DNA from: an uncultured Planctomycetia bacterium
GTDB taxonomy: Bacteria > Omnitrophota > Gorgyraeia > 1-14-0-20-64-10
Length of the DNA: 64,000 nt
Assembly: GCA_964373295.1 (NCBI GenBank)
Contig: CAYJUA010000001.1
Location: 4,608 to 68,607 of the forward strand
Reading direction: 5' to 3'
Shown: piece after piece, positions 1,715 through 53,127 of the stretch
Position numbering within the stretch: position 1 is the stretch's first letter
Layout of the letters: every line of letters starts with the position of its first letter
The notes under the pieces: generated by a model
The model's input: only the letters and a program-made list of their open reading frames with translations
Database searches by the model: none
What the model was told of the DNA's origin: nothing
Translations under genes and position numbers: made by a program

Positions 1715-1765
1715 TCTCCCTTTCGTTTTTCCCTCGTATCATATAACATGAGGATTCAATCTCAA
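1715..1765. promoter_or_regulatory. Divergent intergenic region with an AT-rich island (tttcgttttt ... TATCATATAAC); candidate promoter/operator for lhgO and the UXS operon
   Basis: 51 bp between the divergent starts. The AT-rich 11-mer at about 1737-1747 stands out in GC-rich DNA. An AGGA Shine-Dalgarno motif lies about 11 nt before ATG 1766. Confidence 0.3.
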
Positions 1766-4108
1766 ATGCGGATCCTCATCACCGGGGGCGCCGGTTTCAT
1801 CGGCTCGCACCTCACCGAGCGTTTCCTCGCGGAGGGCCACGAGGTCCTCTGCGTGGACAACTTCATCACCGGCGCGGAGAAGAACCTTTCCGGGGCGGAC
1901 GGGAAGAGCTCCTTTCAGCTGGTCCGGCATGACATCAGCCGGCCGCTGGAGGTGGAAGGTTCGGTGGATTTCGTCCTCCATTTCGCGTCGCCCGCCAGCC
2001 CGCCGGACTACATGCGGTACCCCATCCAGACGATGAAGGTGGGCGCCCTGGGAACGCACAACGCCTTGGGGATCGCCAAGGCGAAGAAAGCGAAGTTCCT
2101 GCTGGCCTCCACCTCGGAGGTGTACGGGGACCCGGAGATCCACCCTCAGAAGGAGAGTTATTGGGGCCACGTGAACCCCGTGGGGCCGCGCGGGGTCTAC
2201 GACGAAGCCAAGCGGTTCGCCGAGGCGCTCACCATGGCGTACCACCGGGAGCACGAGGTGGACACCCGGATCGTCCGGATCTTCAACAGTATTCTTGCGG
2301 ATGAGACGGTGGTTCTCTTCAATGAGCGCAAGCTGCATCTGGAGCCCATCGCGGACTACGTGGCCGGTTTGGAGCGCCGTCTGGAGCTCGATCCGCCGAA
2401 GATTCTTGTTCCGTCCTTTGATCCCGAGACCTGCCGAGTGTCTTTGGCGGAAGTCAGCGCGGTCATCAAGCATCCCTGCCAAACCGAGTGCTTTCAGCTC
2501 CATCTTCGCTATGGCCGCAGCGTCAAGGTGACCGGCGATCATAGCGTCTTCACCTGCGATGAAAACGGTGCGCCGATCGCAATCCCTGTTCGTCAATTGC
2601 AGGTTGGCGATTACGTTGCGATCCCTGCAGCCTTGCCTGCCGTCGAAAATGACGTTGAACGCTTTCATCTGGGGGACGCTCTCATGCGAGCCCTACCCGA
2701 AGCTGAGCTGTGGGATTATGTCGTTCAGGCTCCCAGCCTCCGGGCAATCATCGACAGCCGAAGGGACGATCTGCACAGGATCCTTGAGGAAAGCGCGCGC
2801 CTTCAGGCAAAGCGGAGGAAAAACGCTCTGGGATGCGCCGCAAGAAAGTATCTGAAGCAGTCTTTTCTGCCGCTTTATGTCCTCAAGCGGTTGGGGATCG
2901 CTGTCCCCGAGGGGGGTCGGTTGCGGGTCTTCAAGTCGGGTGCGCACATCCGGCTGCCTGCGACGATTGAACTTACCGATGACCTTTTGTGGCTCATCGG
3001 CTTCTTCATCGCGGAAGGCGGCTTCCATTATTCGGCCGGGAAAAGCGCGTACATCTCGTTTTGCTCCAACGGCTACTTGCTTGACCGCGCCGCAAGCATC
3101 CTGCAGGGGTTGGGTTGCCACGTCGTTCGGGTCCCTCCAACTGAGAAAACAGGCCCTGCAGTGACGGCGCATTCCCGGCTTCTCCATCATTTGTTCAAAG
3201 ATGTTTTCGGGGTCGTCGGAGAGGGAAAGAGATTTCCAACATGGATTCTCCAGTTGCCGCTCTCCCGGCTGAAGCATGTCCTGGAAGGTTTCCGGGAAGG
3301 GGACGGCACCCACAGCGGGAAGAAAATGGGCAAGGAGCTTTGTTTCGATACGACCAGCGAGCCTCTAGCCCAGCAACTCCTGTATCTCTTGCTTCGGTTC
3401 GGAATCGTCGGTAGCTTCGGAAAGTACGGCACTACGTTCCGGAAAAAATATGGAGACCGACGGTTCCCGTTCTTCCGCGTGACCATCTGCGAGTTGGATA
3501 ATTTCGATGTTCTCGGTTGGGATCGAGGGGTTCGGCAAACACTTGATGCAAGACGGAAGGGCGACTTGGTGTGGTCCAGAGTGAAGCGGATTGAGCCTTG
3601 TGAACCGACGGGATTTGTCTACGACTTCTCCGTGCCGCAGAGGGAGAATTTTGTGGCTGGAAACGGCGTCTTCTGCCATAACACCTACGGTCCCCGGATG
3701 CGGGAGGAGGACGGCCGCGCCATTCCCAACTTCATCACCCAGGCGCTCGCGGGGAAGCCGGTGACGGTCTTCGGGGGCGGTTCCCAGACCCGGTCGTTCT
3801 GCTACATCTCGGACATGGTCGAGGGGATCGCGCGCCTGATGAAGAGCGATTTGCACGACCCGGTGAATCTGGGGAATCCCAATGAGATGACCCTTCTGGC
3901 CCTGGCGCGGTTCATTCTGCGGCTGAGCGGCAGCAAAAGCCTCATCGAGTTCCGCCCGCTGCCGGTGGACGACCCGAAGGTCCGGTGCCCGGACATTTCC
4001 CGCGCCCGGGAGGTGCTGCGCTGGAGGCCGGCTGTGCCGCTGGAGGAAGGGCTGCTGAAGACGGTCGAGTGGTTCCGCCAGCTTGACACCCGCTTAAAAT
4101 TTCGGTAA
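1766..4108 (+). CDS. UDP-glucuronate decarboxylase (UDP-xylose synthase)-like NAD-dependent epimerase/dehydratase, interrupted in-frame by an intein
   Basis: N-extein [16 protein letters not shown]...YDEAKR...RIVRIFN and C-extein [18 protein letters not shown]...GNPNEMTL... together give a contiguous UXS/ArnA-like SDR with the hallmark RIFNTYGPRM motif once the insert is removed. An alternative in-frame ATG lies at 1748. The AGGA RBS favours 1766. Confidence 0.85.
2288..3682 (+). mobile_element. Intein (465 aa) with LAGLIDADG homing-endonuclease domain, inserted between N and T of the RIFN|TYGPRM motif
   Basis: Starts with Ser1 ([11 protein letters not shown], block A). TxxH block B ([10 protein letters not shown]). 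Dodecapeptide-like blocks [14 protein letters not shown] and [14 protein letters not shown]. Block [18 protein letters not shown]. Terminal ...VFCHN followed by +1 Thr. In frame with no stops. Confidence 0.8.
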
Positions 4109-4131: not shown

Positions 4132-4182
4132 CCTGCGTGTACCCAACCCCCTGTCCCATCGTGAGCTAGTGGGGCCTGCCTG

Positions 4183-10757: not shown

Positions 10758-11825
10758 ATGATCATCTGCCGGACGCCCTTCCGGATCTCCTTTTTCGGCG
10801 GCGGGACGGATTACCCCGCCTGGTACCGGGAGAACGGGGGGGCCACGCTGGTGACGACGATCAGCAAGTACTGCTACATCACCTGCCGCTGGCTGCCTCC
10901 TTTCTTCCAGCACCGCAGCCGGATTGTTTGGTCGAAGATCGAGCTGGTGCGGGAGACCGGGGAGATCGAGCACCCCGCGGTGCGTGAGGCGCTGCAGCAC
11001 CTCCACATTCGGCACGGGATCGAGATCCACCACGACGGCGACCTCCCGGCTCGAACCGGCCTGGGGTCGAGCTCCGCCTTCACGGTGGGCCTCCTTCACG
11101 CCCTCTACGGCCTGAAGGGGGTCATGCCGAGCAAGCGGCAGCTCGCGCTGGAGGCGATCCGCGTGGAGCAGGGGTGGCTCCAGGAGAATGTGGGGTGCCA
11201 GGACCAGGTGGCGGCGGCCTTCGGAGGCTTCAACCGGATCGATTTCGAGCGCAACGATGGGATCCAGGTTTCCCCGATCCTCTTGGATCCGGGTCGGCTG
11301 GTGGAGCTCCAGAGCCGCCTGATGCTTTACTACACGGGGATCTCGCGGACCGCTTCGGAAATCGCCGGCGAGCAGATCAAGGCGACTTCCCGCAAGAAGG
11401 AGGAGCTTCGGGCGATCTACGGGATGGTGGATGAGGCGGTGCGGATCCTGCAGAGCGGCGAGGATTTGAAGGCCTTCGGGCGGATTCTCCACGAAAGCTG
11501 GAAGCTCAAACGGTCGCTCACCCCGCGGATCTCGACCCCCATGATCGATCAGCTCTACGAAACCGCCCGGGCTGCGGGAGCCACCGGCGGGAAGATCCTG
11601 GGGGCCGGAGGCGGGGGGTTCCTGCTGCTCTTCGTCGAACCGGATCGCCAGCCGGAGGTCCGCGAGGCCCTGGGACAACTGCTGCACGTCCCGGTGCAGT
11701 TCGAGAGCTCTGGGAGCCGAATCATCTTCTATGACCCGGACGGCTACGATCCGGAGGAGGGGGTGGCGCAGCAGCAGCGAACGGGGAGTTCTCCGGAACA
11801 AGAAGGGATTTTGACCCCGGGATGA
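10758..11825 (+). CDS. GHMP-family sugar kinase (HddA / fucokinase-like)
   Basis: MIICRTPFRISFFGGGTDYPAWY N-terminus and GHMP motif PARTGLGSSSAFTVGLLHAL. Strong AGGAGG RBS upstream. Confidence 0.75.
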   Translation: MIICRTPFRISFFGGGTDYPAWYRENGGATLVTTISKYCYITCRWLPPFFQHRSRIVWSKIELVRETGEIEHPAVREALQHLHIRHGIEIHHDGDLPARTGLGSSSAFTVGLLHALYGLKGVMPSKRQLALEAIRVEQGWLQENVGCQDQVAAAFGGFNRIDFERNDGIQVSPILLDPGRLVELQSRLMLYYTGISRTASEIAGEQIKATSRKKEELRAIYGMVDEAVRILQSGEDLKAFGRILHESWKLKRSLTPRISTPMIDQLYETARAAGATGGKILGAGGGGFLLLFVEPDRQPEVREALGQLLHVPVQFESSGSRIIFYDPDGYDPEEGVAQQQRTGSSPEQEGILTPG

Positions 11826-12625
11826 CGGCGCTCTCTGGAGGGGCCCAAACGGTTGCCGCTGGGAGCGGGGTCGGGGCGACGCAGCGGCGTCTGAAGTACA
11901 CGATGCTGGTCATGACGCTCAACGAGATCGAGGGAATGAAGGTGATCATGCCCCGGGTGCGCGGGGAGTGGCTTGACCAGATCATCGTGGTGGACGGGGG
12001 CTCCTCCGACGGCACCATCGAGTGGGCCCGGGAGCGCGGCTATGAGGTCCATGTGCAGCAGCGTCCGGGTTTCCGAAGCGCCTACCAGGAGGTGTGGCCG
12101 AAGGTTTCCGGGGACGTGGTGATCTACTTCACACCCGATGGAAATACCGTGCCGGAGGCGATCCCACAGCTCATCGAGAAAATGGAGGAGGGATACGACC
12201 TCGTGATCGGGTCCCGCTACCTGGGCGACGCGAAGTCCCTGGATGACGACGCGGTGACCTCCTTCGGGAACTGGCTGTTTCGCACGCTGACCAATCTGCT
12301 GCTGAAGCCTCGGGGCTCTCCCCGGATGACCGATCCCATGATCATGTTCCGAGCGCACCGCAGGGACCTCCCCCATCGGCTGGGGCTGGATCGGCCGGAG
12401 CCGTTCGAGGGGCTCGAGCATCTCTTCAGGACCCGGGTGGACTGGATCCCCCTGATGAGCATGCGGGCCCTGAAATGGGGAGCCCGGTGGACCGAGATCC
12501 CGGCGGATGAACCGCCCCGGATCGGAGGGGAGAGGAAGCTCCAGATCCTCAAGTGGGGAGCGGTCTTCCTTCTTCAGCTCCTGCGGGAGGCGGTCTCGGG
12601 ATCCCGGAAAGCGCCGCTGGCCTAG
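11822..12625 (+). CDS. Family-2 glycosyltransferase (polyprenyl-phosphate sugar synthase / DPM-synthase-like)
   Basis: ATGA overlap with the kinase. MLVMTLNEIEG...VVDGGSSDGT...DLVIGSRYLGDAKS pattern of GT2 DPM1-like enzymes. Confidence 0.7.
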   Translation: MTALSGGAQTVAAGSGVGATQRRLKYTMLVMTLNEIEGMKVIMPRVRGEWLDQIIVVDGGSSDGTIEWARERGYEVHVQQRPGFRSAYQEVWPKVSGDVVIYFTPDGNTVPEAIPQLIEKMEEGYDLVIGSRYLGDAKSLDDDAVTSFGNWLFRTLTNLLLKPRGSPRMTDPMIMFRAHRRDLPHRLGLDRPEPFEGLEHLFRTRVDWIPLMSMRALKWGARWTEIPADEPPRIGGERKLQILKWGAVFLLQLLREAVSGSRKAPLA

Positions 12626-12645: not shown

Positions 12646-14949
12646 TTGTCCGCGTCCCGGCGGCGGGTCCTCCTTTACAGGGTTGTGCCTGCGGCATCGG
12701 TTCTCCTGTTCCTCGGCCTGCTGGCCCCCGCAGTCCGCGGCGCCGTCCCGGACACCGACCACTGGTGGATCCTCCCGACCTTTTCCCACTACGTGGAAGG
12801 GCAATCCGCCTCGGAGATCGCCTCTTTCCTCCTGAACCATTCCCCGAAATATTTCCGGCCGCCTCTGCTCAAGGGGCTGATCCTGTTTGTGGACGGCTTC
12901 CTGGGACTTCCGTTCCGCGCCTTCCCAGCAGCCGGCCTGCTGATCCACCTGCTCAACGCTGTCCTCCTGGCCCTCCTTTGTCGGAAGATGGGGATCTCCC
13001 TTCGGGCGGCGATCTCCAGCGGGGTCATCTTCCTGGCCCTCTTCATCCATTTCCACGGCTACCTCTGGCTTCCGGCGTCTCAGCACCCCTACTCGATCAC
13101 CACCACCCTGGCGGTGCTGTGGCTCTTCCTCCGGACGGAGGAACTCAGGCGCCGGGGCCGGCCCTGGAAAGGAACCTATGCCCTCACGGCGCTGGGGACC
13201 GCTGTGGGATCGCTCCAGCACTCTGGAATGATCGCGCTGGGCTCGATGGTCTGCCACGCGTGGGTGGCGCCGGGCTTAAGCGGGATCCAGCGGAGGGAAT
13301 TGTGCAGGCGCTGGCTGCCGGTCTGGGGGCTGTTCCTGATCTATCCTTTGTGGGCGATGGCCGCCTTCGGTGACAACACGGCGATCTCGGCCATCGAGAA
13401 GATCCCCCTTCCGCCGCTGGCCAAGACGGCGGCGCTGCTCCTGGCGGCGGCCGCCGGGCTGCTGCTGATCCGCTTCGCGGCGGGAATGAGGAGCCTGCGC
13501 AGGGGCTGGGTCGGCCTGGCCCTGGCTTTGGGGGTCTGGATTCTCCTGATGGCGCGGGACTTGCGGCAGGTTCTCCTGCCGTACAACGGGCTGGTCCCCT
13601 TCATGACGGTGCTGGGCTCTTTCCTGGACCCGATCCATTCCGCTCTGCGGATGGATTCCGTCGACCCCTACCATTACGCGCAGCCCCAGGTCTCCGTTTT
13701 CCTCCTCCTGCTCACCCTCGTTACCGCCGGGACGTTTACCCTGGCCTTCGCGCGGAGAAAGAGAGGCCTGGCGGTGTGGGGGGTGTGGTATGGGATCGCG
13801 CTGGCTTACTTGCTCCTCCATAAGCACGTCGCCTCCAGCATGCCGTTCCGGACGCAGTCCCGCTATTTTCTGTACCTCTCCCCCCTCTTCTCCGTGATGG
13901 CCGGGTGCGGGCTGGCCTATGCCGCCGCGGTTCTGGCGCGGGGCGCCAGGTGGAAGAGACGGGGGCGGGATGCGGCGCTGGCTCTCACGCTGGCCGCGCT
14001 GTGCGTGCCCAATCTCCTGGCGATCCGGTTGGCCTTGTTCCGCGGGAGGCTGGTCAACACCTACTTCGTCTACGACGATGTCCGCGCCGCGGCCCTGATC
14101 GCCAGCGACCTGAAAGGCGCGGGGGATGGGGAACCGGTCGCCGTGGAGGGGCTGACCTCCTTCTGGTTTCGGAAGAAGTGGAGCCGGCCGGTGGAGGGCG
14201 AGCGGATCGCTTTCGACAATTTTCGGAGGATCCTGAGGGACCGAATCGGCCGCTCCCATCCGCTGGAGCTCGCCGGGGAGGCCAGGTGGGGGAAGGGACG
14301 CGGGTACCGGATCGGCGGCGGCCAGGTCTTCGCGCCGGACGGCAGGCCGCTCGATCTGTTCCGGGAGGAGGTCCGGGTGGGGCTGGCGCTCCTACAGGAG
14401 GGGCGCAGGGAGGAGGCGAGACGCCGCTTCCTCGCGGGGGCCGCCCGGCGGCCCTTCCTGGTGAACTACGTCCTGGGGGAGAGAGGGCGGCTGTCCGACG
14501 CGGAGTGGATCACCGGCGGCCTGGATCTGCGGGACTGGGCCGAGTGGATGGGCCGGCGCTACCGGCGATGGAGCATTGCGCCGGCGGAAAAGTGGGAGGC
14601 GGTTTCCTCCCTGATACGCGCCGAACTTTCCGATTACCTGCTCTGCCTATCGGTGCTCGCTTTCCTGGAGGATCAGGGCGGGCGGCCAGAGGAAGCCAAG
14701 CGATGGCTCTGCCAAGTCTACCTGCTGGAGCGTGATCCGGAGCGGGCGGCGGAGCTCCTCCGCGGGGATCCGCGCGCGGGCGAATCGATCCTGCTTCAGG
14801 AATTCTCCGCGCGCTTCCTGGATCCGGAGTGGTTTCACAACCCGGCCCCGTGGCGGAGGAACGACTACGCGTTTGCCAGGTTCCTGGCCCGGGCTCTCTT
14901 TGGATTGGATCTGCGGTCCGGTTGGGACCGGCGGGCAGGGGCGGCGTGA
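12646..14949 (+). CDS. Large polytopic membrane protein with C-terminal soluble domain, GT-C-fold-like putative glycosyltransferase (tandem paralog A)
   Basis: About 11 predicted TM segments in the first ~480 aa. Acidic first-loop motif VPDTDHWWILPTFSHYVEG. The C-terminal domain is rich in Arg and Trp. The ORF track begins at 12553 but that overlaps the GT2 by 73 nt. TTG 12646 has a GGAAGG RBS and is proposed as the start. Confidence 0.5.
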   Translation: MSASRRRVLLYRVVPAASVLLFLGLLAPAVRGAVPDTDHWWILPTFSHYVEGQSASEIASFLLNHSPKYFRPPLLKGLILFVDGFLGLPFRAFPAAGLLIHLLNAVLLALLCRKMGISLRAAISSGVIFLALFIHFHGYLWLPASQHPYSITTTLAVLWLFLRTEELRRRGRPWKGTYALTALGTAVGSLQHSGMIALGSMVCHAWVAPGLSGIQRRELCRRWLPVWGLFLIYPLWAMAAFGDNTAISAIEKIPLPPLAKTAALLLAAAAGLLLIRFAAGMRSLRRGWVGLALALGVWILLMARDLRQVLLPYNGLVPFMTVLGSFLDPIHSALRMDSVDPYHYAQPQVSVFLLLLTLVTAGTFTLAFARRKRGLAVWGVWYGIALAYLLLHKHVASSMPFRTQSRYFLYLSPLFSVMAGCGLAYAAAVLARGARWKRRGRDAALALTLAALCVPNLLAIRLALFRGRLVNTYFVYDDVRAAALIASDLKGAGDGEPVAVEGLTSFWFRKKWSRPVEGERIAFDNFRRILRDRIGRSHPLELAGEARWGKGRGYRIGGGQVFAPDGRPLDLFREEVRVGLALLQEGRREEARRRFLAGAARRPFLVNYVLGERGRLSDAEWITGGLDLRDWAEWMGRRYRRWSIAPAEKWEAVSSLIRAELSDYLLCLSVLAFLEDQGGRPEEAKRWLCQVYLLERDPERAAELLRGDPRAGESILLQEFSARFLDPEWFHNPAPWRRNDYAFARFLARALFGLDLRSGWDRRAGAA

Positions 14950-17270
14950 AGATCGGCGCGCGGGGGTGGCTCCTGATCGCGTCGGTGGCCGCCTACTTTG
15001 CTGTCTTGTGGCCGGCGGCTCTGCGGATCGTCCCGGAGGACGACCTCTGGTGGATGCTGCCCACGATGTCGCACTATCTCGAGGGTCGGTCCCCGTGGGG
15101 AACCCTCCTCTTCCTCCTGGATACCCTGCCGGTGGGCTTTGCCCAGCCCACCCTGAAGCTCTTCCTGTACGCTGTCTCCCGGCTTTTTGGGCCGGAGGTG
15201 CGCTGGCTCCTCCTGGCTTCGATGGTGATCCAGGTCGGCAACGCAGCGCTCCTGGGCCTGCTGGCGCGGCAGTGGGGATTGAGCGTCCGGATCGCCGCCG
15301 TTTCAGCGGTGCTCTTCCTGTTCTTCTTCGGGCATTTCCACGCGGTCCTCTGGCCGACGGCCGCCCAGCACCTGTTGGCCGTGACCACCCTCCTGGCCCT
15401 GCTGAATCTCTATTTCTGGACGGAGGGGCGGGTCCGCGAGGGGAAATGGGGCGCGGCGGCGGGTTTCATCGGGGCGGGGGCGGCGGCCCTCGCGGCCTCG
15501 ATGCAGAGGAGCACCATCATCGCGCTGGCGGTGATGGCGGCGGACCTCGTCGCTTTTTCGCGGGACGCGGAGGAGCGGGCGGCGCGGTTCCGGCGCTGGT
15601 CCTGGATCTTCCTCCTGTACGCGCTCTATCCCATCGTGATGGTGACCTCCTCAGGGGATCCGGTGGTGACGGAAGGCCTGCGCAAGCTCTCGATACCGGA
15701 CTGGCTGAGGGGGCTGGTGGTGACGGATCCCCTCTTCCCCAACTCCATCCCGTGGGGGATCCGCGCGGCGATCCTGATCGGCTTTGTCCTGGGGGGTCTG
15801 GGGGCCGTCTGGGCGGTGTTGCGCGCCGCGCCGGGCCGCTGGCTGGACCGGACCGGCTGGCGGCCGTGGGCGGCGGTCGGGGCGGGCGTGCTCCTCCTGT
15901 GGTGTTGGAAGGACCATCGGCAGCTGCTGTTCCCCTACAGCGGTTCGGTGCCGTTCCTGGCTCCCTTCTCGCTCCTCCTGGACCCTCTCCGGGCGGCTTT
16001 CGAGATGGATTCGACGGAGCCCTACTACTACCTGGCCCCCCAGGTGAGCGCTGGGACCCTCCTGCTGGCGCTGGCGGCCATCGTCGCCTTTTGGAAAACC
16101 CACCTTCTCCGGAACCGGAAGCTGGCTTTGCTCTTCGTCTGGTACGTCGTCACCCTGGGGGTTACGCTCCATCAGGATTCCAGCCATCCGCTGCACACGC
16201 CGTCGCGCTACTTCATTTACCTTTCGCCGTTGGCGGCTATCGTGGTTTCCTGCGGCCTGGAGGATCTGGCCGGCTGGGCGGCCCGGGGGCGGAGGGAGCG
16301 CTGGCGCGAGATCGCGCTGTACGGGATGGCGGGGCTCTTGTGCGCGGCGAACCTGGCGGCCATCCGCGTGGCACTCTTCCGGGGGAGGCTGGTCAACGCG
16401 GTCCTCTTTTATGACGATTTTAGGACGGTCCGCCTCATCCAGGATGAAGCCCTTGAAACTCAGGCGGTTCGGGTGAGCGGCGTGGTGCCAATGCCGATCC
16501 GGGAGGTGTGGAGGGATTTCCCCCTTTCCGTCCCGCCGGATTACGACAACCTGCACGCTGCCGCGGCGGCTTTGGGATCGATCCCGCTGCGAGGAGGGGA
16601 AGGAGCGCCGCAAGGTCTTTCCGTGTACCGCCTGGAGGGCATGCGGGTGTTGAGCCCCCTGGGGCGCTCGATTGAGCCCTTCGACCAGCTGGTCCAGGGG
16701 GGGTGGAACAAGATTTCCAGTCGGGAGTTTCAGGAGGCGTCGGAGACGTTCTTGGACGCCGTGACCAGGCCCCCGTTCCTGGTGCGCTGGCTCACGGAGG
16801 GGATCCGCATCTCCGATCTGCGCTGGGTGACCGGCGGATCGGATCTCAACGATTGGCTGGAGCGGGTTGTGGACTCCCAAAGAGAGCCCGGTCAGCCTGA
16901 GCCCAAGAAGCTGACCCGCGTGAGGGAGCTTCTCCAGGCAGAGTTGGACGCTTACGCTCGGGCGTTGGTGCTTCTCGCTTACGCCCATCACCGCTGCGGG
17001 AGGGACGCCGAAAGCCGATACTGGCTCTCGCAGACTCAGCTCTTGGAGCGTGACCCGCGAGCGATTGTTCATGAAATGGACAAGCTTCCCAAAGGGAGAT
17101 TGTCTCCGGAGCTGATCTCTTTCCTGAACCGCATGGAGGATTCCCGCTTCCTTCCCGAGGCCCATGACGTGAAGAAGGAGGATTATGCGGCAGGCCGCTT
17201 CCTGGTCCGGCTGATCCTGGGATGGGACATCCGCTCGAGCTGGGACCGGCGTTTTTCAAAGACGCTGTGA
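14946..17270 (+). CDS. Large polytopic membrane protein, GT-C-fold-like putative glycosyltransferase (tandem paralog B of the preceding gene)
   Basis: Shares many colinear motifs with paralog A: DLWWMLPTMSHYLEG vs DHWWILPTFSHYVEG, FPYSGSVPFL vs LPYNGLVPFM, EMDSTEPYYYLAPQVS vs RMDSVDPYHYAQPQVS, SRYFIYLSPL vs SRYFLYLSPL, AIRVALFRGRLVN vs AIRLALFRGRLVN, and C-terminal SSWDRR vs SGWDRR. A GTG at 14946 overlaps the stop of paralog A (GTGA). The ORF track start 14829 would overlap by 121 nt. Confidence 0.5.
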   Translation: MKIGARGWLLIASVAAYFAVLWPAALRIVPEDDLWWMLPTMSHYLEGRSPWGTLLFLLDTLPVGFAQPTLKLFLYAVSRLFGPEVRWLLLASMVIQVGNAALLGLLARQWGLSVRIAAVSAVLFLFFFGHFHAVLWPTAAQHLLAVTTLLALLNLYFWTEGRVREGKWGAAAGFIGAGAAALAASMQRSTIIALAVMAADLVAFSRDAEERAARFRRWSWIFLLYALYPIVMVTSSGDPVVTEGLRKLSIPDWLRGLVVTDPLFPNSIPWGIRAAILIGFVLGGLGAVWAVLRAAPGRWLDRTGWRPWAAVGAGVLLLWCWKDHRQLLFPYSGSVPFLAPFSLLLDPLRAAFEMDSTEPYYYLAPQVSAGTLLLALAAIVAFWKTHLLRNRKLALLFVWYVVTLGVTLHQDSSHPLHTPSRYFIYLSPLAAIVVSCGLEDLAGWAARGRRERWREIALYGMAGLLCAANLAAIRVALFRGRLVNAVLFYDDFRTVRLIQDEALETQAVRVSGVVPMPIREVWRDFPLSVPPDYDNLHAAAAALGSIPLRGGEGAPQGLSVYRLEGMRVLSPLGRSIEPFDQLVQGGWNKISSREFQEASETFLDAVTRPPFLVRWLTEGIRISDLRWVTGGSDLNDWLERVVDSQREPGQPEPKKLTRVRELLQAELDAYARALVLLAYAHHRCGRDAESRYWLSQTQLLERDPRAIVHEMDKLPKGRLSPELISFLNRMEDSRFLPEAHDVKKEDYAAGRFLVRLILGWDIRSSWDRRFSKTL

Positions 17271-17319: not shown

Positions 17320-18330
17320 ATGATTCTCAAAGAGAAGGTGGTTCTGGTCACCGGAGGCACCGGTTCCTTTGGAAGGAAATTCACCGAGACCGTCCTGCGG
17401 GACCACTCTCCCAAGAAGCTGATCATCTTCAGCCGGGATGAGTGGAAACAGTCGGAGATGGCGCACCAGTTCAACGATCCCCGCGTGCGTTTTTTCCTGG
17501 GGGACGTGCGGGATAAGGACCGGCTGGAGCGGGCGTTCGACGGCGTTCAGGTGGTCGTGCACGCCGCGGCGCTGAAGCAGATCCCCACGGCGGAATACAA
17601 TCCGTTAGAGGTGATCAAAACCAATGTTCTGGGCGCGGCCAACGTGATCGACGCCGCCATCGACCGAGGGGTCGAGCAGGTGGTGGCCCTCTCGACCGAC
17701 AAGGCGGCCAACCCGATCAACCTCTACGGGGCCAGCAAGCTTTGCTCCGACAAGCTCTTCATCGCCGCCAACGTTTACTCGGGGCCCCACCGGGCCAAAT
17801 TCAGCGTGGTGCGCTATGGCAACGTGGTGGGCAGCCGGGGCAGCGTGATCCCCCTCTTCCTGAAGCGCCGGGAGACCGGCAGGATCCCCCTCACCGACCG
17901 GCGGATGACCCGTTTCTGGATCACCTTGGAGCAGGGGGTTCAGCTGGTTCTGCATGCCCTGGCGGGGATGCACGGCGGCGAGATCTTCGTCCCCAAAGTC
18001 CCCAGCATGACGCTGGTGGACCTGGCTGAGGCGATCGCGCCGGACTGCAAGCAGGAGATTGTGGGCATCCGTCCGGGAGAGAAGCTCCACGAGGTCATGA
18101 TCACCACCGATGACTCCCGCCGGACGGTGGAGATGCCTGAATTCTACGTCATCCAACCCGATTTTCCCGCGATCCATCCCGGTTCCAACTGGGAAGAGGG
18201 GAAACCGGTTCCTGCCGGTTTCTCCTACACCAGCGATTCCAACACGCAGTGGCTCAGCAAGGCGGAGCTGCTGAAGCTGGTCGGCCAGGTGGAAGGGGTT
18301 CTGCAGGAAGCGGGCAGGGATGGGGACTGA
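17320..18330 (+). CDS. pseB: UDP-N-acetylglucosamine 4,6-dehydratase (inverting), PseB/FlaA1/CapD-like
   Basis: MILKEKVVLVTGGTGSFGRKF...LIIFSRDEWKQSEM...YGASKLCSDKLF... is about 336 aa and colinear with PseB-type short-form dehydratases. Confidence 0.7.
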   Translation: MILKEKVVLVTGGTGSFGRKFTETVLRDHSPKKLIIFSRDEWKQSEMAHQFNDPRVRFFLGDVRDKDRLERAFDGVQVVVHAAALKQIPTAEYNPLEVIKTNVLGAANVIDAAIDRGVEQVVALSTDKAANPINLYGASKLCSDKLFIAANVYSGPHRAKFSVVRYGNVVGSRGSVIPLFLKRRETGRIPLTDRRMTRFWITLEQGVQLVLHALAGMHGGEIFVPKVPSMTLVDLAEAIAPDCKQEIVGIRPGEKLHEVMITTDDSRRTVEMPEFYVIQPDFPAIHPGSNWEEGKPVPAGFSYTSDSNTQWLSKAELLKLVGQVEGVLQEAGRDGD

Positions 18331-25342: not shown

Positions 25343-25932
25343 AGAGCCCCTTCCTGGTCGGGAAGAAGTGCTACCTGCGGCCGTTCGAGGAGTCGGACCT
25401 GCACGACGACTACGCCGCCTGGTTCAATGATCCGGCCATCACGCGGTACCTGGGGATGGGAAAATTCCCGGTCAGCCGGGAGGGCCTGCGCCTGTCGCTG
25501 GACCGGTTCCGAAACTCCACGAGCGACATCCTCCTGGCGATCATCGACGCCAAGACCGAAACCCACATCGGCAACGTGGCTCTGAACCGGATCAACTGGG
25601 TGCACCGGACCGCGGACACCGGCCTCGTGATCGGGCGCAAGGAATTCTGGGGGAAAGGGTACGCGACCGAGGCCTGGGCGTTGCTGGTGCGCTACGCGTT
25701 CGACACCCTCAACCTCCACAAGGTGATCGCCACGGTGGTGGGCGGCCACGACAGCAGCCAGGCGGCGCTGGAGAGGATCGGTTTCAAGGTGGAGGGGAGA
25801 TGCCGGGAGGAATTCTACGTGGACGGGGAGTACCACGACTACATCCGGCTGGGGCTGCTCCGGGGCGATCTCGCGCCGAAGCCGGTGAACGGAGAGAAGG
25901 CGGCCGCCGCCAACTCTAAGAGGGGACGGTGA
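25339..25932 (+). CDS. GNAT-family N-acetyltransferase (PseH/RimL-like)
   Basis: ATGA overlap with the synthase. ...HIGNVALNRINWVHRTADTGLVIGRKEFWGKGYATEAWALLVRYAFDTLNLHKV... is an acetyl-CoA-binding GNAT core. Confidence 0.75.
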   Translation: MKSPFLVGKKCYLRPFEESDLHDDYAAWFNDPAITRYLGMGKFPVSREGLRLSLDRFRNSTSDILLAIIDAKTETHIGNVALNRINWVHRTADTGLVIGRKEFWGKGYATEAWALLVRYAFDTLNLHKVIATVVGGHDSSQAALERIGFKVEGRCREEFYVDGEYHDYIRLGLLRGDLAPKPVNGEKAAAANSKRGR

Positions 25933-27956
25933 CCCGCGAGGTCTTCTTCGAGACGATCACCCGCGGCCATCGCCCGCTCGTGGCCTGGTACCTGGCGCGG
26001 GGTTGGCGGGTCCGCGTGTTCGACTTCAGCTGCCGGTTGAAGTCCATGGCGTGGATGAGGCCGCTCCTCTTCGAGGGCCGTGTGGAACGGGTCTATGTCC
26101 ACATCAATTCAAGGGCCGACGGGCTGGCGATCGATGCGGCGGAATTGCTCTTCCACCGGTTCGCCGGTCATCGGCTCATCCGGCGGATGGGGGCGATCTT
26201 CGGGCGCGAGGAAAGCGAGCCGGTCTTCAAGCATGCGCTGGTCGAGAGCCTGTCGAGGTATTTCTTCTGCCGCCTCTACCTGGAAGAGCGCCTCCGGTCT
26301 GGGGGGGCCGCGGCCCGGGTGGAGTTCGTCCCGGATTCTTACCGGCGATGGGACCGCCTGCTGGAGGAGTGGTGCCGGACGCGCGGGATCGGCGGCATCG
26401 CCGCCGTCCGGATCCCGCCGCTGCCTGCTCTCGGGTCGGAATGGCTGGGGGCGTGGGGTCGGCGCGCTCAACAGCTTCCGCGGTATCTCTCGGCCGGAAT
26501 CCTCGCGCTGGCGGCGGGCGTTCTGCGCGTTTTGCGGCGCGGGTGGAGGTCGGAGCCGCCGGTCGCCTGCACCTACCTGTACGCGATCGACTCCAAATTC
26601 CAGACGAAGTTTGAAGGGGGCCGCCGGTTCGATTTCCTCCTCGATGGGGAGCGGATCACGCGGGAGAACACCCTCTTCCTGGTCCATCCCTCCGTGGAGG
26701 GCCCCTGGCTTGAGCAGACGCGACGGGAGGGGTGCCGGGTCCTGCTCCGTTCCGAATGCCAGGGGTTGAAGGGGTTCCTTCACCATCCGCCGAGGGGGAT
26801 CCCCGTGGGGGCGGCGCTGCGGGCGGTGGGAACGGGGCTGGCGAGGATCGGGGCGCCGGAATGGCTGCATGCGGCGGCGACGACGGGTCTGGGGATCCTG
26901 ACGCGGGAGCTCAACACCCTGGAAAGGGTCCGGTTTTCCCACTACATCTACTCCAGCCAGTACCGGCTGACTCCCCGCTGGCGGAACATCCTGATCCGAA
27001 GGGCGGGGGGGCAAAGCTGGTGGTTCGCCTACTCCAACGGCGGGGGGCACCTCTACCGGCAGCACGGGCCCTTCGGAGGGGACGGCGATTTTGGGGGGCG
27101 GCACCGGTTCTGGGCACACGAGAACGCGGACCATTTCGTCTCTCCCTCCGCGGCGTTGGTCGAGTACCATCGCTCTCACCACCAGAGGATCCGGCATTAC
27201 CACGATGTGGGGAACATCTGGTCCGAGCAGATCCTGGCGATGGGATCCTCCCTGAACGTTGAGCAGGTCCGGGCGGAATGGTTCGGGCCGCGCGCCCGGG
27301 GAAAGAAGGTGATCGCCTGGTTCGACACCACCTTCGTGGAAGCGCCCAACTCCCCCAGCACGATCACGGAGGCCATCCGGTCGTACCGGGACCTCCTGCG
27401 CCTGGTTTCGGAGGACGAGCGGATCTGCGCGGTGATCAAGCCGTCGAAGGACGAGGGCTATTTCGTGGGGGAGGGGCCGGATCGCCAGTGGGCGATCCCG
27501 CGCCTGGGCCACGGCCTGATGGAGGTCTGGAGGGAGATGAGGAGTCAGCCGGGGATCCGCTTCCTGCCGGACAGCGCCGACCCGACTGTGGTGGTCGCCG
27601 CGAGCGACCTGACCGTGACGTTCCACGTCTCCTCGGTGAGCGCCGAGGCCCTCGGCGCCCGGCGGCGGGGCATCTGGTACGAGCCGGGAGAACGCTGGCG
27701 GGACACGCCGATGGGCAGGGAGCCGCTCCTGGCTGCCCACGGCTACGCGGAGCTCAAGGCCCTGGTGGAGAAGCTACTCTTCGAGATGAGCGACACGGCG
27801 TACGAGGTTTTTCTGGAGGAGCGGGTTCGGGGCCGGGTGGAGACTTGGATGGATGGAAAGGGATTGACCCGGTTCCGGGACCTGCTGGCGGGCGGGGCAG
27901 CCGCGGATCGGAGCGTGAGGGAGACGGCGCGATGGGCGATCTCGGCGGCACGCTGA
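25929..27956 (+). CDS. Hypothetical 675-aa protein, possibly a TagF-like/GT-B-fold glycosyl- or phosphotransferase
   Basis: No clear signature. The C-terminal third (KKVIAWFDTTFVEAPNS ... VVVAASDLTVTFHVSSVSAEALGARRRGIWY) loosely matches the xAPTW ... ITDYSS arrangement of the TagF family. It sits directly after the nonulosonate genes. Confidence 0.35.
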   Translation: MTREVFFETITRGHRPLVAWYLARGWRVRVFDFSCRLKSMAWMRPLLFEGRVERVYVHINSRADGLAIDAAELLFHRFAGHRLIRRMGAIFGREESEPVFKHALVESLSRYFFCRLYLEERLRSGGAAARVEFVPDSYRRWDRLLEEWCRTRGIGGIAAVRIPPLPALGSEWLGAWGRRAQQLPRYLSAGILALAAGVLRVLRRGWRSEPPVACTYLYAIDSKFQTKFEGGRRFDFLLDGERITRENTLFLVHPSVEGPWLEQTRREGCRVLLRSECQGLKGFLHHPPRGIPVGAALRAVGTGLARIGAPEWLHAAATTGLGILTRELNTLERVRFSHYIYSSQYRLTPRWRNILIRRAGGQSWWFAYSNGGGHLYRQHGPFGGDGDFGGRHRFWAHENADHFVSPSAALVEYHRSHHQRIRHYHDVGNIWSEQILAMGSSLNVEQVRAEWFGPRARGKKVIAWFDTTFVEAPNSPSTITEAIRSYRDLLRLVSEDERICAVIKPSKDEGYFVGEGPDRQWAIPRLGHGLMEVWREMRSQPGIRFLPDSADPTVVVAASDLTVTFHVSSVSAEALGARRRGIWYEPGERWRDTPMGREPLLAAHGYAELKALVEKLLFEMSDTAYEVFLEERVRGRVETWMDGKGLTRFRDLLAGGAAADRSVRETARWAISAAR

Positions 27957-29125
27957 CGCGGAGGTTGGGCAGGCTGGCGCGGGAGGTGGCCGGCGGGGCC
28001 AAGGGCATTGCGTACACGGATGAAGGCAATCGCTCCATCGTGCGGCTGAACTATCGCTCCTACCTGCGGGACCCGCATCTGCTCCGGCTTTTCACCGAGT
28101 ACCAGGCCACAGGAAACTTCACGGGACACCTCTGCGATCTCTCCCCGGAGGATGCGGAGATGGTCCGGGAGATCCGAGAGGGGCTCCGGGCTCTGCGGAA
28201 GGCCCAGGGCGACCGGGGGTACGCCGCCGGCCCCATGTGGGCGAAGTGGAACGACCGGATGCTGGGGGCCGCCCTGGCGGCCGACCCGCGCCTGTACAAC
28301 CACATCGGCGCGCTCAATTACAAGAGCTTCGAGCCGCAGGCGCTGAGCCTGGAGGCGGTGATCCTGGAGGTCCTCCGCACCCTGGTTCTCCATGACTATT
28401 TCCGGGAGAGAACGCAGGATTTCGGCGGGCTGTTCACCGGTTTGAACAGCCGGCACTTCACGCTGGAAGGGTGCCGGCTCAACGCCGGCCTGCGGGCCAT
28501 CGAGGAGAAGCTGCTCCTGGAGCCGGTTTTGGCCCGCGCGAGGGAGAGGGGCGGCAGGCCCCGCGTGCTGGAGATCGGCGCGGGGAGCGGCCAGCTGGCG
28601 AACCTGCTTTGCCGGGGGGGGGCCCGGATGGTGGTGATCGACCTGCCCGGCATGCACGCCCGGGCGCCGTACTTCCTCTACAAGAGTTCCGGACTTCGGG
28701 TCTGCACCTATTCCCGTTTCCTCTCTTTGGACAGGGATCTGGAGGGGGCGCTGGAGCGTTACGACGTGGTCTACCTGCCCCCCTGGGAGAAGGAGGCGCT
28801 GGCCCCGCTCCGGTTCGATCTGGGGGTGAACGTCCATTCGCTTGGCGAGATGAGCGTCGGGGAGGTGCGGGGCTACCTGGCGCTGGTGCGGGAGAGCTGC
28901 GGCCATTTCTTCTCGATCAACACGAGCACGCGGGACCTGGACCCCCGCAAACAGCCGGGCTATTCGGAGAACGGGACTCTCTTTCAGGAGGTGGGGCTCG
29001 GGATGAAGCTGGTCGCGACGGGAACCCCGCTCTTCGACACGGCGTTCCAGAAGACAGCCCACTACGGGTACGCCCTCTATCAGCGGGCGCAGGCGGCGGG
29101 GAACGGAGGGGGAACGTCGGGATGA
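27932..29125 (+). CDS. Class-I SAM-dependent methyltransferase (sugar O-methyltransferase-like)
   Basis: SAM-binding motif RVLEIGAGSGQLANLL...VVIDLPGM in the C-terminal half. The start overlaps the upstream gene by 25 nt. Confidence 0.6.
   Translation: MGDLGGTLTRRLGRLAREVAGGAKGIAYTDEGNRSIVRLNYRSYLRDPHLLRLFTEYQATGNFTGHLCDLSPEDAEMVREIREGLRALRKAQGDRGYAAGPMWAKWNDRMLGAALAADPRLYNHIGALNYKSFEPQALSLEAVILEVLRTLVLHDYFRERTQDFGGLFTGLNSRHFTLEGCRLNAGLRAIEEKLLLEPVLARARERGGRPRVLEIGAGSGQLANLLCRGGARMVVIDLPGMHARAPYFLYKSSGLRVCTYSRFLSLDRDLEGALERYDVVYLPPWEKEALAPLRFDLGVNVHSLGEMSVGEVRGYLALVRESCGHFFSINTSTRDLDPRKQPGYSENGTLFQEVGLGMKLVATGTPLFDTAFQKTAHYGYALYQRAQAAGNGGGTSG
28614..28622 (+). repeat. Poly-G tract (G9) inside the methyltransferase CDS
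   Basis: ...tgccGGGGGGGGGcccgg... encodes CRGGA. Coordinates are +/-1. Confidence 0.5.
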
Positions 29126-30936
29126 AGCGGACGGGCCTGAAAGCCCTTGGGGTGCTTATCGCCCCGTATCGATGGTGGATGCTGCTTCTTTTGTCAGCGT
29201 CGCTTGCCGTCAGTCTGTTGGAAGGCCTGCACGTCGCCGCTTTCTTCCCGGTTTTTCAGACTCTCTTGGGCGAAAAGGCTGGAGCGCCGGTTGGGCTCCT
29301 GCAATGGATGACGGATTGGGTCGCTGGACTCCCGCTCAGAGATCCGATTGCGGGAGCCACGCTGTTTCTCCTGGCCATCACGGTGCTGCGCTGCCTGATG
29401 ATCCTGGCGTACGACGCCCTGCTTGCCCGGGTGAGCGGGCACGTGCATGACGACCTGAAAAATCGCCTGATGCACCGGCTCGCCGGGTCCGCTTATTCCT
29501 TCTTTCTGGATCACAAGCAAGGAGAGCTGCTTTACACGCTTTACTTCGGGACCAGCCGGGTGGGGACGCTCACCCAGAAGGTGTCAAAGCTGGTGTCGGA
29601 GGCGCTGATGGTCAGCGGGATCGCGGTCCTCCTTTTCATCTCGATGCGGGAAGCGACGGTCCTGTTGGCGCTGATGGGGCTTGTCTACTACGGATTGACG
29701 CGCCGGCTTTCGTCAAAAATCTCTTACCATGTGGGCCGGATGCGCGTGGCCTCCGGCGCGGAACAGACCTCCATTGCCAACGAGTTTCTGACCGGCATCC
29801 GGCAGATCATGGCTTTCGGGACGCAGCCGGCGTGGCTGGGGAGTTTCCGTAGGGAGAGCACCCGCTTCCGGGACCTTTACGTGAAGGACTCCATCTGGTT
29901 GAGCATCCCCAAGGTGCTGCTGGAGTTCTTCGTGATCTCCTTTCTTGTGGGGGTGGTTCTGCTCCTGCGCATCCGGAACCCCGGGTTCCTTTCGAGTCAC
30001 CTGGCGCTCTTTGCCCTGTTCGCCGTGGGAGTGATGCGGATTCTGCCTTCCCTGTCCCTGCTCGGGCATTTGATGATGGAAATTTCCGGGCTGATCCCGG
30101 ACGCGGAGGCGGTCCACCGGCTCCTGACCCAGCCGCTCCCGGCCCATCGGGGGGGGAGCCGTCCCTTTCGGCCGATGAGGCGGGAGATCGCGTTGGAGGG
30201 GGTCCACTTCGGTTATCCCGGCAGAGAGCCTCTCTTCCAGGGCCTGCAGACCACTTTTCCCAGGGGAAAGGTGACCGGCATCGTGGGAACCTCCGGCAGC
30301 GGCAAGAGCACTCTGGCTCACCTGCTCCTGGGGCTCTTGGAGCCGGCGAGGGGCCGGATCCTGGTGGACGGAGTGGAGCTGCGGGAATATCCGTTGGAGG
30401 AATGGAGAAAGCGGATCGGCTTCGTCAGCCAGGAGATGTTTGCCTTCCACGCTTCCATCGCGGACAACATCCGGTTCGGCCGGAAGGGGTATCCCGATGA
30501 GCGCGTCCGGAGGGCGGCGGAACTGGCGAAGGCCCATTCCTTCATTCAGGAGCTTCCCCATGGATACGAGACGGTGGTCGGCGAGCGGGGGATGAAGATC
30601 TCGGGCGGACAGCAGCAGAGGATCGCCATCGCGCGGGCGGCGCTCCACGACCCGGAGATCCTGATCTTCGATGAGGCCACCAGCTTCCTTGATACAGAGT
30701 CGGAGCGTCTCGTCCAGGAGGCGATCGAATCGGTCTCCCGGGAACGGACCGTGATCCTGATCGCGCATCGGCTCTCGACGGTGAGGAACGCGGACCAAAT
30801 CCTGGTGATGGAACGGGGCAGGATCGCGGAGGAGGGGACCCACGAGGAGCTTCTCCGGTTCACTGGGATCTATCACCGGCTGGTGGCCTCGGCAGGGCTC
30901 CAGGCCGAACCCCAGGTGGCGGAGGGAACCCGATGA
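29122..30936 (+). CDS. ABC transporter, fused permease/ATP-binding protein (MsbA-type exporter)
   Basis: Six-TM N-terminal half. C-terminal NBD with Walker A GTSGSGKST, ABC signature ISGGQQQRIAIARAAL and Walker B ILIFDEATS. Confidence 0.85.
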   Translation: MKRTGLKALGVLIAPYRWWMLLLLSASLAVSLLEGLHVAAFFPVFQTLLGEKAGAPVGLLQWMTDWVAGLPLRDPIAGATLFLLAITVLRCLMILAYDALLARVSGHVHDDLKNRLMHRLAGSAYSFFLDHKQGELLYTLYFGTSRVGTLTQKVSKLVSEALMVSGIAVLLFISMREATVLLALMGLVYYGLTRRLSSKISYHVGRMRVASGAEQTSIANEFLTGIRQIMAFGTQPAWLGSFRRESTRFRDLYVKDSIWLSIPKVLLEFFVISFLVGVVLLLRIRNPGFLSSHLALFALFAVGVMRILPSLSLLGHLMMEISGLIPDAEAVHRLLTQPLPAHRGGSRPFRPMRREIALEGVHFGYPGREPLFQGLQTTFPRGKVTGIVGTSGSGKSTLAHLLLGLLEPARGRILVDGVELREYPLEEWRKRIGFVSQEMFAFHASIADNIRFGRKGYPDERVRRAAELAKAHSFIQELPHGYETVVGERGMKISGGQQQRIAIARAALHDPEILIFDEATSFLDTESERLVQEAIESVSRERTVILIAHRLSTVRNADQILVMERGRIAEEGTHEELLRFTGIYHRLVASAGLQAEPQVAEGTR

Positions 30937-48640: not shown

Positions 48641-48644
48641 GTCG

Positions 48645-50342: not shown

Positions 50343-50350
50343 AAGCAGCC

Positions 50351-53123: not shown

Positions 53124-53127
53124 CGCG

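Follow-up and report, generated by a model that had tools for sequence, protein, structure and literature searches.

Tandem paralogous membrane proteins of an unnamed family with a predicted GT-C fold and oligosaccharyltransferase-like architecture

Two adjacent genes encode paralogs of an unnamed family

In a 64,000-nt stretch of DNA (the window, by whose positions all genes are numbered), we examined positions 12646 to 17270, which are filled by two co-directional open reading frames (ORFs), genes A and B. Gene A (12646..14949, + strand) starts with a TTG codon at 12646, with a Shine-Dalgarno-like AGGAAG located 8 to 14 nt upstream, and encodes a protein of 767 amino acids that is identical to database protein P0001 and that contains transmembrane (TM) helices at residues ~8 to 465 followed by a C-terminal domain (residues 466 to 767). 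Gene B (14946..17270, + strand) most likely starts with the GTG codon at 14946, and the 774-amino acid product specified by this start is identical to database protein P0010. BLASTP aligned the two proteins over 772 residues, of which 36% are identical and 48% score as positives (E = 7e-107); the alignment runs colinearly from TM1 through to the C-terminus, and the similarity is far beyond chance. A and B are paralogs, in agreement with an earlier interpretation of the DNA letters (the sequence-only reading), which had described tandem paralogous polytopic proteins of ~780 amino acids with ~35–40% identity. The operon is tightly packed: a gap of only 21 nt separates A from an upstream gene for a GT2-type glycosyltransferase, and, given that the GTG start of B overlaps the TGA stop of A (GTGA), translational coupling of A and B is suggested. 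Residue numbers below refer to the gene A protein.

Scans of A and B with Pfam and NCBIfam gave no match at E ≤ 1, including no match to Pfam PMT (PF02366), PMT_2 (PF13231), or DPY19. Pfam STT3 (PF02516) did not match any of 60 family members at E ≤ 10, and no Pfam Wzy_C or O-antigen-ligase match was found for A, B, or the 60 members, one of which showed a sub-threshold match to PMT_2 (E = 0.0038). Sequences in the Protein Data Bank (PDB) compared with the family profiles yielded just noise and weak matches to consensus tetratricopeptide repeats (TPRs), with no oligosaccharyltransferase (OST) among the matches. The admission in the sequence-only reading that the family was not recognised was therefore justified. 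Three rounds of a word-indexed search of 5.8 billion proteins, including one with an 86-sequence profile, detected only nine family members, all without a Pfam domain or a name, and the family became visible only in an exhaustive search with HMMER against 1.84 billion representatives (clusters at 50% identity). This search returned 370 family clusters at E ≤ 1e-3, of which 123 also passed E ≤ 1e-30; the proteins are mostly 750 to 800 amino acids long. Matches in a collection of species-representative genomes were confined to two uncultured Planctomycetia metagenome-assembled genomes (MAGs) and one Candidatus Omnitrophota MAG, the remaining matches being on groundwater and other metagenome contigs; a tblastn search of PLSDB plasmids with A gave no match. 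Nine long relatives (~1000 amino acids) contained no informative additional Pfam domain. All clusters were unnamed, no source consulted gave a name for any member, and we found no paper describing the family when the literature was searched for the gene cassette presented below or for divergent OSTs.

Predicted fold and membrane topology

A structure model of A was built with AlphaFold2 from a 9-sequence alignment (mean predicted local distance difference test score, pLDDT, of 76.6; predicted TM-score, pTM, of 0.79) and was compared with PDB structures with the use of Foldseek. The matches at ranks 1 to 21 were all glycosyltransferases of the GT-C_A class (yeast and human STT3, Archaeoglobus AglB, Campylobacter PglB, and the C-mannosyltransferase DPY19), each with a probability of 1.00, after which the probability dropped at once to below 0.3. 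OSTs, including the catalytic subunit 8agc_A (E = 9e-5), ranked above DPY19 (7zli) and above the protein mannosyltransferase (PMT) pair Pmt1-Pmt2 (6p25_B), which appeared at rank 37 (E = 0.27). A and B are thus predicted to have a GT-C fold (GT-C_A), as the sequence-only reading had proposed, and no confident match to a non-glycosyltransferase membrane family arose.

The same matches bear on the possibility that A and B are glycan polymerases or ligases (an option also raised in that reading) resembling Wzy, WaaL, or O-antigen ligase, or else that they form a non-enzymatic transporter or scaffold, for a glycan containing nonulosonic acid. In its favour, A and B are located within a sugar-biosynthesis cassette, no Wzy, Wzx, or ligase was recognised among the scanned window ORFs, and fast evolution and variable copy number are also features of Wzy and Wzx. 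However, no Wzy, WaaL, SEDS, or RodA/FtsW structure was present among the 50 listed fold matches, transporters and pyrophosphatases appeared only with a probability of <0.3 and a TM-score of ~0.1, the corresponding Pfam matches were absent, and the conserved periplasmic set of E-x-D, His, and Arg residues described below is typical of GT-C_A active sites. We consider this explanation highly improbable, and a polymerase or ligase function was rejected on the basis of the fold matches.

Hydropathy, the helices of the AlphaFold2 model, and the density of K and R residues in an alignment of 86 family members agreed on 13 TM helices with a cytoplasmic N-terminus and an extracytoplasmic C-terminus (N-in/C-out), in keeping with the 8 to 13 or more helices and the extracytoplasmic active site of GT-C_A proteins. 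The frequency of K plus R per residue was 0.21 to 0.44 in all seven cytoplasmic segments and 0.01 to 0.08 in the periplasmic loops, with the exception of a four-residue loop that contains the conserved R192. Given this topology, the acidic loop that follows TM1 and the C-terminal domain are periplasmic; the former location had been required by the sequence-only reading, and a cytoplasmic one was not seen. Of the ~21 membrane-domain residues with the highest conservation, approximately 17 map to the periplasmic face, and almost every conserved polar residue is located at the periplasmic surface of the membrane.

Conserved motifs and candidate active site

Conservation was counted in the alignment of the 86 members, which are divergent, with identities to A down to 18%. 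The loops quoted in the sequence-only reading are present in A (residues 35 to 52, PDTDHWWILPTFSHYVEG) and in B (PEDDLWWMLPTMSHYLEG), and both contain a signature where the first periplasmic loop begins: D-T-D-H-W-W-I-L-P at residues 36 to 44 of A (12751..12777, + strand) and E-D-D-L-W-W-M-L-P at residues 31 to 39 of B (15036..15062, + strand). Position 36 is E in 75 of 86 members (D in A), D38 is present in 81 of 83 non-gap sequences, W41 in 79/86, and P44 in 84/86, whereas the first W of the "WW" is found in only 33/86. The signature as revealed by these counts is therefore [ED]-x-D-x-x-W-x-x-P. The E36/D38 motif is located 5 to 7 residues past TM1, compared with about 20 residues in PglB. 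The catalytic Asp of solved GT-C enzymes follows TM1 (PMC11127046), and D38 is by analogy a candidate catalytic base.

A second motif, H-F-H-G-Y-L-W-L-P-A-S-Q-H (residues 135 to 147 of A, 13048..13086, + strand; equivalent in B at 15333–15371), spans the periplasmic end of TM3 and the start of TM4. H135 is conserved in 65, H137 in 66, and W141 in 76 of the 86 members, and H147, found in 86/86, is the sole invariant residue of the family. Together, H-F-H and H147 occupy the loop in which PglB has D154-x-D156 (D154-T-D156). The long periplasmic TM9–TM10 loop (residues 304 to 350, 13555..13695, + strand) comprises 46 residues with two short helices (317 to 327 and 329 to 335) and corresponds in position to external loop 5 (EL5) of OSTs, although the confidence of the model is low for the N-terminal part of the loop (pLDDT of <50 at residues 298 to 313). 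L327 and P329 are conserved in this loop, with conservation of its acidic positions being partial (D337 in 49/86 and D/E328 in 29/86).

At the periplasmic start of TM12, A contains S-R-Y-F-L-Y-L-S-P (residues 405 to 413, 13858..13884, + strand; equivalent in B at 16203–16229), with S405 being conserved in 82/86, R406 in 84/86 (the other two having K), Y407 in 79, Y410 in 79, and P413 in 82. R406, Y410, and P413 match R375, Y379, and P382 of Campylobacter lari PglB both in spacing and in their place in the topology, the TM11–TM12 loop reading S-R406-Y-F-I-Y410-L-S-P413 in the family and L-R375-F-T-I-Y379-A-V-P382 in PglB. The PglB sequence was checked against PDB entries 5ogl and 3rce (E = 1e-265), and this alignment provided the C. 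lari numbering. R406 is a candidate (pyro)phosphate-binding Arg. The last motif, Y-D-D-V-R (residues 476 to 480, 14071..14085, + strand; equivalent in B at 16410–16424), lies ~11 residues past TM13. Its family form is Y-D-[Y/D]-[ILV]-[RK], with Y476 in 79/86, D477 as D in 72 and E in 8, position 478 as Y in 41 and D in 32, and R/K480 in 78/86. The Y-D-[Y/D] element resembles the WWDYG motif of OSTs in sequence, position, and chemistry; WWDYG itself is absent.

Further conserved positions were H101, W141-P, S189, R192, W223-x-P225, P329, N456, and R466. E36, D38, H137, H147, R406, and Y476 are kept in every copy of every array, and the notion that one paralog is a degenerate pseudo-enzyme was rejected on this basis.

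These observations raise the possibility that A and B are true OSTs, that is, a highly divergent bacterial sister family of STT3, AglB, and PglB that attaches a glycan assembled beforehand, en bloc and in N- or O-linkage, from an undecaprenyl-(pyro)phosphate carrier to proteins of the periplasm or cell surface, with each paralog preferring different acceptors or donors. In addition to the ranking of OST catalytic subunits as the best fold matches, the 13 TM helices with a periplasmic C-terminal domain, the R-x3-Y-x2-P match to PglB, the Y-D-[Y/D] motif just past TM13, where OSTs carry WWDYG, and the partly low-confidence loop at the EL5 position are all consistent with this notion. Trypanosoma brucei likewise has tandem STT3 paralogs that differ in specificity, as indicated in PMC5724017. 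In contrast, the absence of WWDYG, the failure of Pfam STT3 to match any of the 60 members even at E = 10, and the presence of H-x-H rather than D-x-D/E as the second metal motif argue against it.

C-terminal domain

The C-terminal domain of A (residues 466 to 767, 14041..14946, + strand) comprises ~300 periplasmic residues. Its description in the sequence-only reading as Arg- and Trp-rich clearly applies to A (15.2% Arg, 4.0% Trp) and modestly to B (11.4% and 2.7%), compared with 9.0% and 1.4% for soluble neighbours. When modelled alone with AlphaFold2 (pLDDT of 79.4), the domain consisted of a small alpha/beta unit followed by approximately twelve helices. A fold search with this model gave no PDB match at E < 0.1, with TPR proteins appearing weakly. 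A consensus-TPR sequence matched weakly at profile positions 582 to 610 (E = 1e-3), corresponding to about one recognisable TPR-like unit; Pfam TPR_2 matched 15 of 60 members below threshold, and TPR proteins were weakly drawn in by the third word-indexed search. F572, P603-F604, K649, and E660 are conserved. We read the domain as divergent TPR-like and presume that it binds the acceptor. A TPR-like domain could bind protein, in keeping with an OST function, but the domain shows no fold likeness to the alpha/beta periplasmic domains of OSTs.

The products of two single-copy loci, L014 (9809–11875) and L015 (9815–11938), are 689 to 708 amino acids long and lack ~90 to 120 profile positions of the domain (roughly 483 to 576 or 605), and the first alpha/beta part is thus dispensable in some members.

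Copy number and divergence

The number of family genes per locus ranges from one (L005, L010/L011, L014, and L015) through two (the window, L001, L004, L009, L013, L025, and L026) to three (L006). Clear orthologs of both A (62% identity) and B (68%) were found only at the nearest locus, L025, the GT2 and PseB proteins of which are 85.5% and 92.6% identical to those of the window, respectively. At other loci the family proteins are 32 to 39% identical, compared with 55 to 85% for flanking enzymes. The divergence of the family proteins is thus several times that of their neighbours, and such fast change beside a conserved donor pathway would be expected of transferases that determine specificity.

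The tandem arrangement might also indicate that A and B form an obligatory heterodimer, with the pair being the functional unit, as for the GT-C enzymes Pmt1-Pmt2 or EmbA-EmbB. Stop and start codons overlap in the window as well as in L001, L025, and L026, orthologs of A and B are both retained at L025, candidate catalytic residues are kept in both proteins, and Pmt1-Pmt2 is among the fold matches. On the other hand, fully flanked loci with a single gene (L014, L015, L010/L011, and L005) and the triplet at L006 do not fit with obligate pairing, and a rough neighbour-joining tree showed several deep clades without clean A-type and B-type orthogroups, with the L004 pair being sisters and the second gene of L026 belonging to a clade different from that of B. 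Given a copy number of one to three, the retention of candidate catalytic residues in every copy, and divergence faster than that of the donor genes, an obligatory heterodimer is disfavoured, as is a dead paralog; we consider the heterodimer quite improbable, and it was rejected as the main model because some loci carry one or three genes and because A/B orthogroups are lacking.

Genomic context

The cassette genes of the window are all co-directional and closely packed. In order, they encode an intein-containing UXS-like dehydratase, a helix-turn-helix (HTH)-nucleotidyltransferase (ManC/HddC-like), an RfbH/PseC-like DegT protein, a fused thiamine diphosphate (ThDP) enzyme resembling the alpha and beta chains of pyruvate dehydrogenase E1 (PDH-E1), an Fcl-like epimerase/reductase, a short-chain dehydrogenase/reductase (SDR) epimerase, an HddA-like GHMP sugar kinase (10758..11825, + strand; Pfam and NCBIfam), the GT2 protein (11822..12625, + strand; 267 amino acids, Pfam Glycos_transf_2), A, B, and PseB (17320..18330, + strand), an inverting UDP-GlcNAc 4,6-dehydratase identified as an NCBIfam equivalog with 515 bits versus a cutoff of 407.75. 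PseB opens a nonulosonic-acid cassette and is followed by genes for a B12-radical SAM enzyme, a Gfo/Idh/MocA oxidoreductase, a cytidylyltransferase/class-III aminotransferase fusion, NeuB, a GNAT acetyltransferase, a 675-amino acid protein without an assigned function, and an ABC exporter.

The upstream GT2 protein resembles polyprenyl-phosphate sugar synthases. Its closest solved relatives are Pyrococcus dolichol-phosphate (Dol-P)-mannose synthase (5mlz, E = 1.6e-10) followed by ArnC, and its sub-threshold NCBIfam matches were AglJ (the best), Dol-P-hexose transferase, and ArnC. We presume that this protein makes the lipid-linked donor. All clade-1 loci with enough flanking sequence (L001, L004, L005, L006, L009, L011, L014, L015, L017, L025, and L026) have their family gene or genes after GT2 and directly before PseB, with L004, L009, L011, and L014 having an extra gene, usually for a B12-radical SAM enzyme, between GT2 and the family gene. 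GT2 was present at 12/12 of the clade-1 loci with upstream flank that we inspected (55–86% identity), and PseB, directly downstream of the family genes, is 75 to 93% identical. The most persistent neighbour across clades is the HddA-like kinase, with an identity of 58 to 73% beside family genes at L001, L004, L009, L011, L014–L017, L021, and L024.

The sequence-only reading had pointed to three genes for GT2 proteins resembling Dol-P-mannose synthase (DPMS), at 11822, 41753, and 56424, and this assignment was confirmed in that the best solved relatives are Dol-P-mannose synthase, ArnC, or GtrB. The two further DPMS/ArnC/GtrB-like proteins are encoded at 41576–42505 and 56424–57941 (both + strand), one of them being fused to an N-terminal S-adenosylmethionine-dependent methyltransferase. 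The same reading had noted two additional GT-C-like proteins. One of these (43088–44518, + strand) is a GT-C protein of Pfam GT87, whereas the other (58756–60288, + strand) is polytopic with SGDDFQY past the first helix but has no Pfam match. An ABC exporter of 821 amino acids (28471–30936, + strand) contains ABC_membrane and ABC_tran domains as well as a long N-terminal extension, and we read it as MsbA/PglK-like.

With regard to a true OST function, an MsbA/PglK-like exporter in the window and the best NCBIfam match of GT2 to AglJ, a component of an archaeal N-glycosylation pathway, would be in keeping with it. Against it, neither an initiating phosphoglycosyltransferase (Bac_transf or Glycos_transf_4) nor Wzx or a glycan-assembly module typical of lipid-linked oligosaccharide (LLO) pathways was found among the scanned window ORFs, and the immediate neighbour of A is an undecaprenyl phosphate (Und-P)-sugar synthase of the monosaccharide type. 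Overall, we regard a true OST function, the leading alternative, as unlikely.

Proposed function and comparison with known systems

We propose, with a probability of roughly 0.6, that A and B are periplasm-facing GT-C transferases that move a lipid phosphate-linked sugar to an acceptor of the cell envelope. An unusual nucleoside diphosphate (NDP)-sugar would be made in the cytoplasm by the HddA-like kinase, the nucleotidyltransferase, epimerases and dehydratases, the RfbH-like pyridoxal phosphate-dependent enzyme, the PDH-E1-like ThDP enzyme, and the B12-radical SAM enzymes. The adjacent DPMS/ArnC-like GT2 protein would then load the sugar onto Und-P, the lipid-linked sugar would be flipped to the periplasmic side, and each of A and B would pass it on to an acceptor in the periplasm. 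In such a reaction, D38 in the first periplasmic loop might serve as general base; E/D36, H135/H137, and H147 might form a metal- or phosphate-binding site; R406 and Y407 might bind the lipid phosphate; and the Y-D-[Y/D] motif together with the TPR-like, Arg/Trp-rich C-terminal domain might hold the acceptor. The tandem copies would be specificity variants for differing acceptor sites or linkages. With respect to the suggestion in the sequence-only reading of a new GT-C family that uses polyprenyl-phosphate sugars, the predicted fold, the periplasmic loop, and the GT2 context all agree with it. Paralogy, family conservation, topology, fold class, the type of the GT2 protein, and synteny are supported directly by the analysis, whereas we infer the lipid-linked donor, the acceptor, and the roles of individual residues.

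Several findings weigh against this proposal. The fold model rests on just nine sequences, and its TM-scores to solved GT-C enzymes are low (0.30–0.38). Alignment of the family profile with PglB by hhalign was non-significant (probability of 0.6%, P = 0.097), and its sole alignment, the S-R-Y/L-R-F segment, is a pointer to the R/Y/P residues of PglB that is suggestive only. The OST-like motifs fit transfer of an oligosaccharide linked to lipid (pyro)phosphate equally well. A crude hydropathy and third-codon-position GC content (GC3) scan found no GtrA-like small flippase in the window. Finally, no GT2 gene adjoins the family gene in L021/L022 (28% identity to A), L019, L024 (24%), or L016. Given that these deeper clades lack it, the GT2-donor link is not family-wide; the role of GT2 proteins as donor suppliers put forward in the sequence-only reading is thus consistent with the adjacent DPMS/ArnC/AglJ-like gene but limited to the window's own clade. 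In the deeper clades, genes for the HddA-like kinase and for epimerases still adjoin the family gene, and the most distant members (~1000 amino acids) have unrelated gene contexts.

The closest architecture is that of the OSTs STT3, AglB, and PglB (CAZy GT66, Pfam PF02516), which share with the family 13 TM helices in N-in/C-out orientation, an extracytoplasmic C-terminal domain, an acidic EL1 motif, conserved residues in the TM3–TM4 loop, a TM9–TM10 loop at the EL5 position (modelled in part with low confidence), R-x3-Y-x2-P at the TM11–TM12 loop, and an aromatic-Asp-Tyr motif (Y-D-Y) shortly after TM13. The two groups differ in sequence, with Pfam, phmmer and hmmsearch comparisons with PDB, and hhalign all being non-significant; in their motifs, with Y-D-[Y/D] in place of WWDYG and H-F-H plus an invariant His in place of D-x-D/E in EL2; in the helical, TPR-like nature of the C-terminal domain; and in the genomic partner, which is an Und-P-monosaccharide-type GT2 protein for the family and an LLO assembly pathway for OSTs. 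Because none of the sequence comparisons (Pfam, PDB search, and hhalign) linked the family to GT66, it is not a member of GT66, yet it is built like one. Our verdict is that it constitutes an unnamed new GT-C family with OST-like architecture, GT66 membership being excluded.

Three-component systems consist of an Und-P-sugar synthase, a flippase, and a GT-C enzyme, sometimes with several GT-C enzymes (Kelly et al. 2024, PMC11127046). The present locus resembles such systems (GtrA/GtrB/Gtr*, ArnC/ArnE-F/ArnT, and the GT136 pentofuranose system; PMC11127046) in that a DPMS/GtrB/ArnC-like GT2 gene lies immediately upstream of genes for proteins with a predicted GT-C fold, a candidate Asp is located right after TM1, and the GT-C protein evolves fast and is apparently specificity determining. 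It differs in that the crude window scan did not reveal a GtrA- or ArnE/F-like flippase in the vicinity, in the much larger size of the family proteins (~770 amino acids with a 300-residue periplasmic domain), in the lack of sequence membership in Gtr, ArnT, or GT136, and in the deeper clades without GT2 beside the family gene.

A GT-C_A membrane domain followed by extracytoplasmic TPR-type repeats is also found in TMTC1–4, bacterial PMT_2+TPR proteins, and PMT (GT39/GT105), and DPY19 (GT98, 7zli) and Pmt1-Pmt2 (6p25) were among the fold matches. These enzymes use polyprenyl phosphate-linked monosaccharides as donors. The family differs from them in that it lacks Pfam PMT, PMT_2, and DPY19 membership, has only about one TPR-like unit, and matched OSTs at higher ranks. 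Tandem paralogous GT-C genes at a single locus are likewise represented by EmbA/EmbB/EmbC and by the trypanosomatid STT3A/B/C genes; neither group shows a sequence relationship to the family, and no Emb structure was present among the listed fold matches. EmbA and EmbB form heterodimers.

A broader extension, which we hold to be unlikely, is that the family represents an unseen bacterial branch of the OST lineage in which Y-D-Y arose from WWDYG and H-x-H from D-x-D, and in which a TPR-like module took the place of the periplasmic domain. Its members would glycosylate proteins or the S-layer with unusual glycans (branched, methylated, or containing nonulosonic acid) in Planctomycetota, Omnitrophota, and further uncultured bacteria of groundwater, and tandem paralogs would differ in sequon or donor specificity.

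GT-C enzymes perform decisive extracytoplasmic steps of protein glycosylation and of cell-envelope glycan assembly, and new GT-C families are still being founded, as exemplified by GT136 from 2024 (PMC11127046). The present family occurs in uncultured lineages only, and its OST-like build with altered motifs amounts to a natural experiment on the essential features of OSTs. A conserved donor cassette combined with fast-evolving transferases in one to three copies looks like a serotype-style diversification system, and the proteins might provide a new glycoengineering tool for rare sugars.

Other features of the window

A cassette of ~20 kb (window positions 4165–25342) recurs at L001, L004, L009, L014, L015, and L021 with 55 to 85% protein identity. 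It includes genes for the HTH-nucleotidyltransferase, RfbH-like DegT protein, PDH-E1-like ThDP enzyme, Fcl-like enzyme, SDR, B12-radical SAM enzyme, HddA-like kinase, GT2, PseB, a PseC-like DegT protein, a B12-radical SAM enzyme, Gfo oxidoreductase, CMP-transferase/aminotransferase, and NeuB. Given its distribution across contigs that range in GC content from 53% to 67% and that are assigned to different phyla, spread of the cassette by horizontal transfer is suggested.

A gene for a UXS/UDP-glucuronate decarboxylase-like SDR (~1760–4108, + strand) is split by an intein (~2423–3683) with a LAGLIDADG homing endonuclease. The intein is located inside the conserved RIFN|TYGPRM motif, ends with ...VFCHN|T, and has a GC content of 0.566, compared with 0.64 to 0.655 for the flanking exteins. 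The gene in the same position at L001, just upstream of that for the HTH-nucleotidyltransferase, encodes a 373-amino acid protein of the epimerase/dehydratase family, which is too short for such an intein.

Two ORFs of the glycan island were without a Pfam match: one at 25929–27956 (+ strand, 675 amino acids) and one at 32662–34302 (+ strand, 546 amino acids), the latter having a GC3 of about 0.80 and an uncertain coding status. A phosphonate-type cassette (48489–54177, + strand) encodes a phosphoenolpyruvate mutase/nucleotidyltransferase fusion, an Fe-alcohol dehydrogenase, a 554-amino acid membrane protein of the sulfatase superfamily, and an epimerase. The membrane protein, which showed a sub-threshold match to Pfam Sulfatase (24.7 bits versus a cutoff of 25), is read as LtaS/EptA-like, and the cassette suggests phosphonate decoration of a surface glycan.

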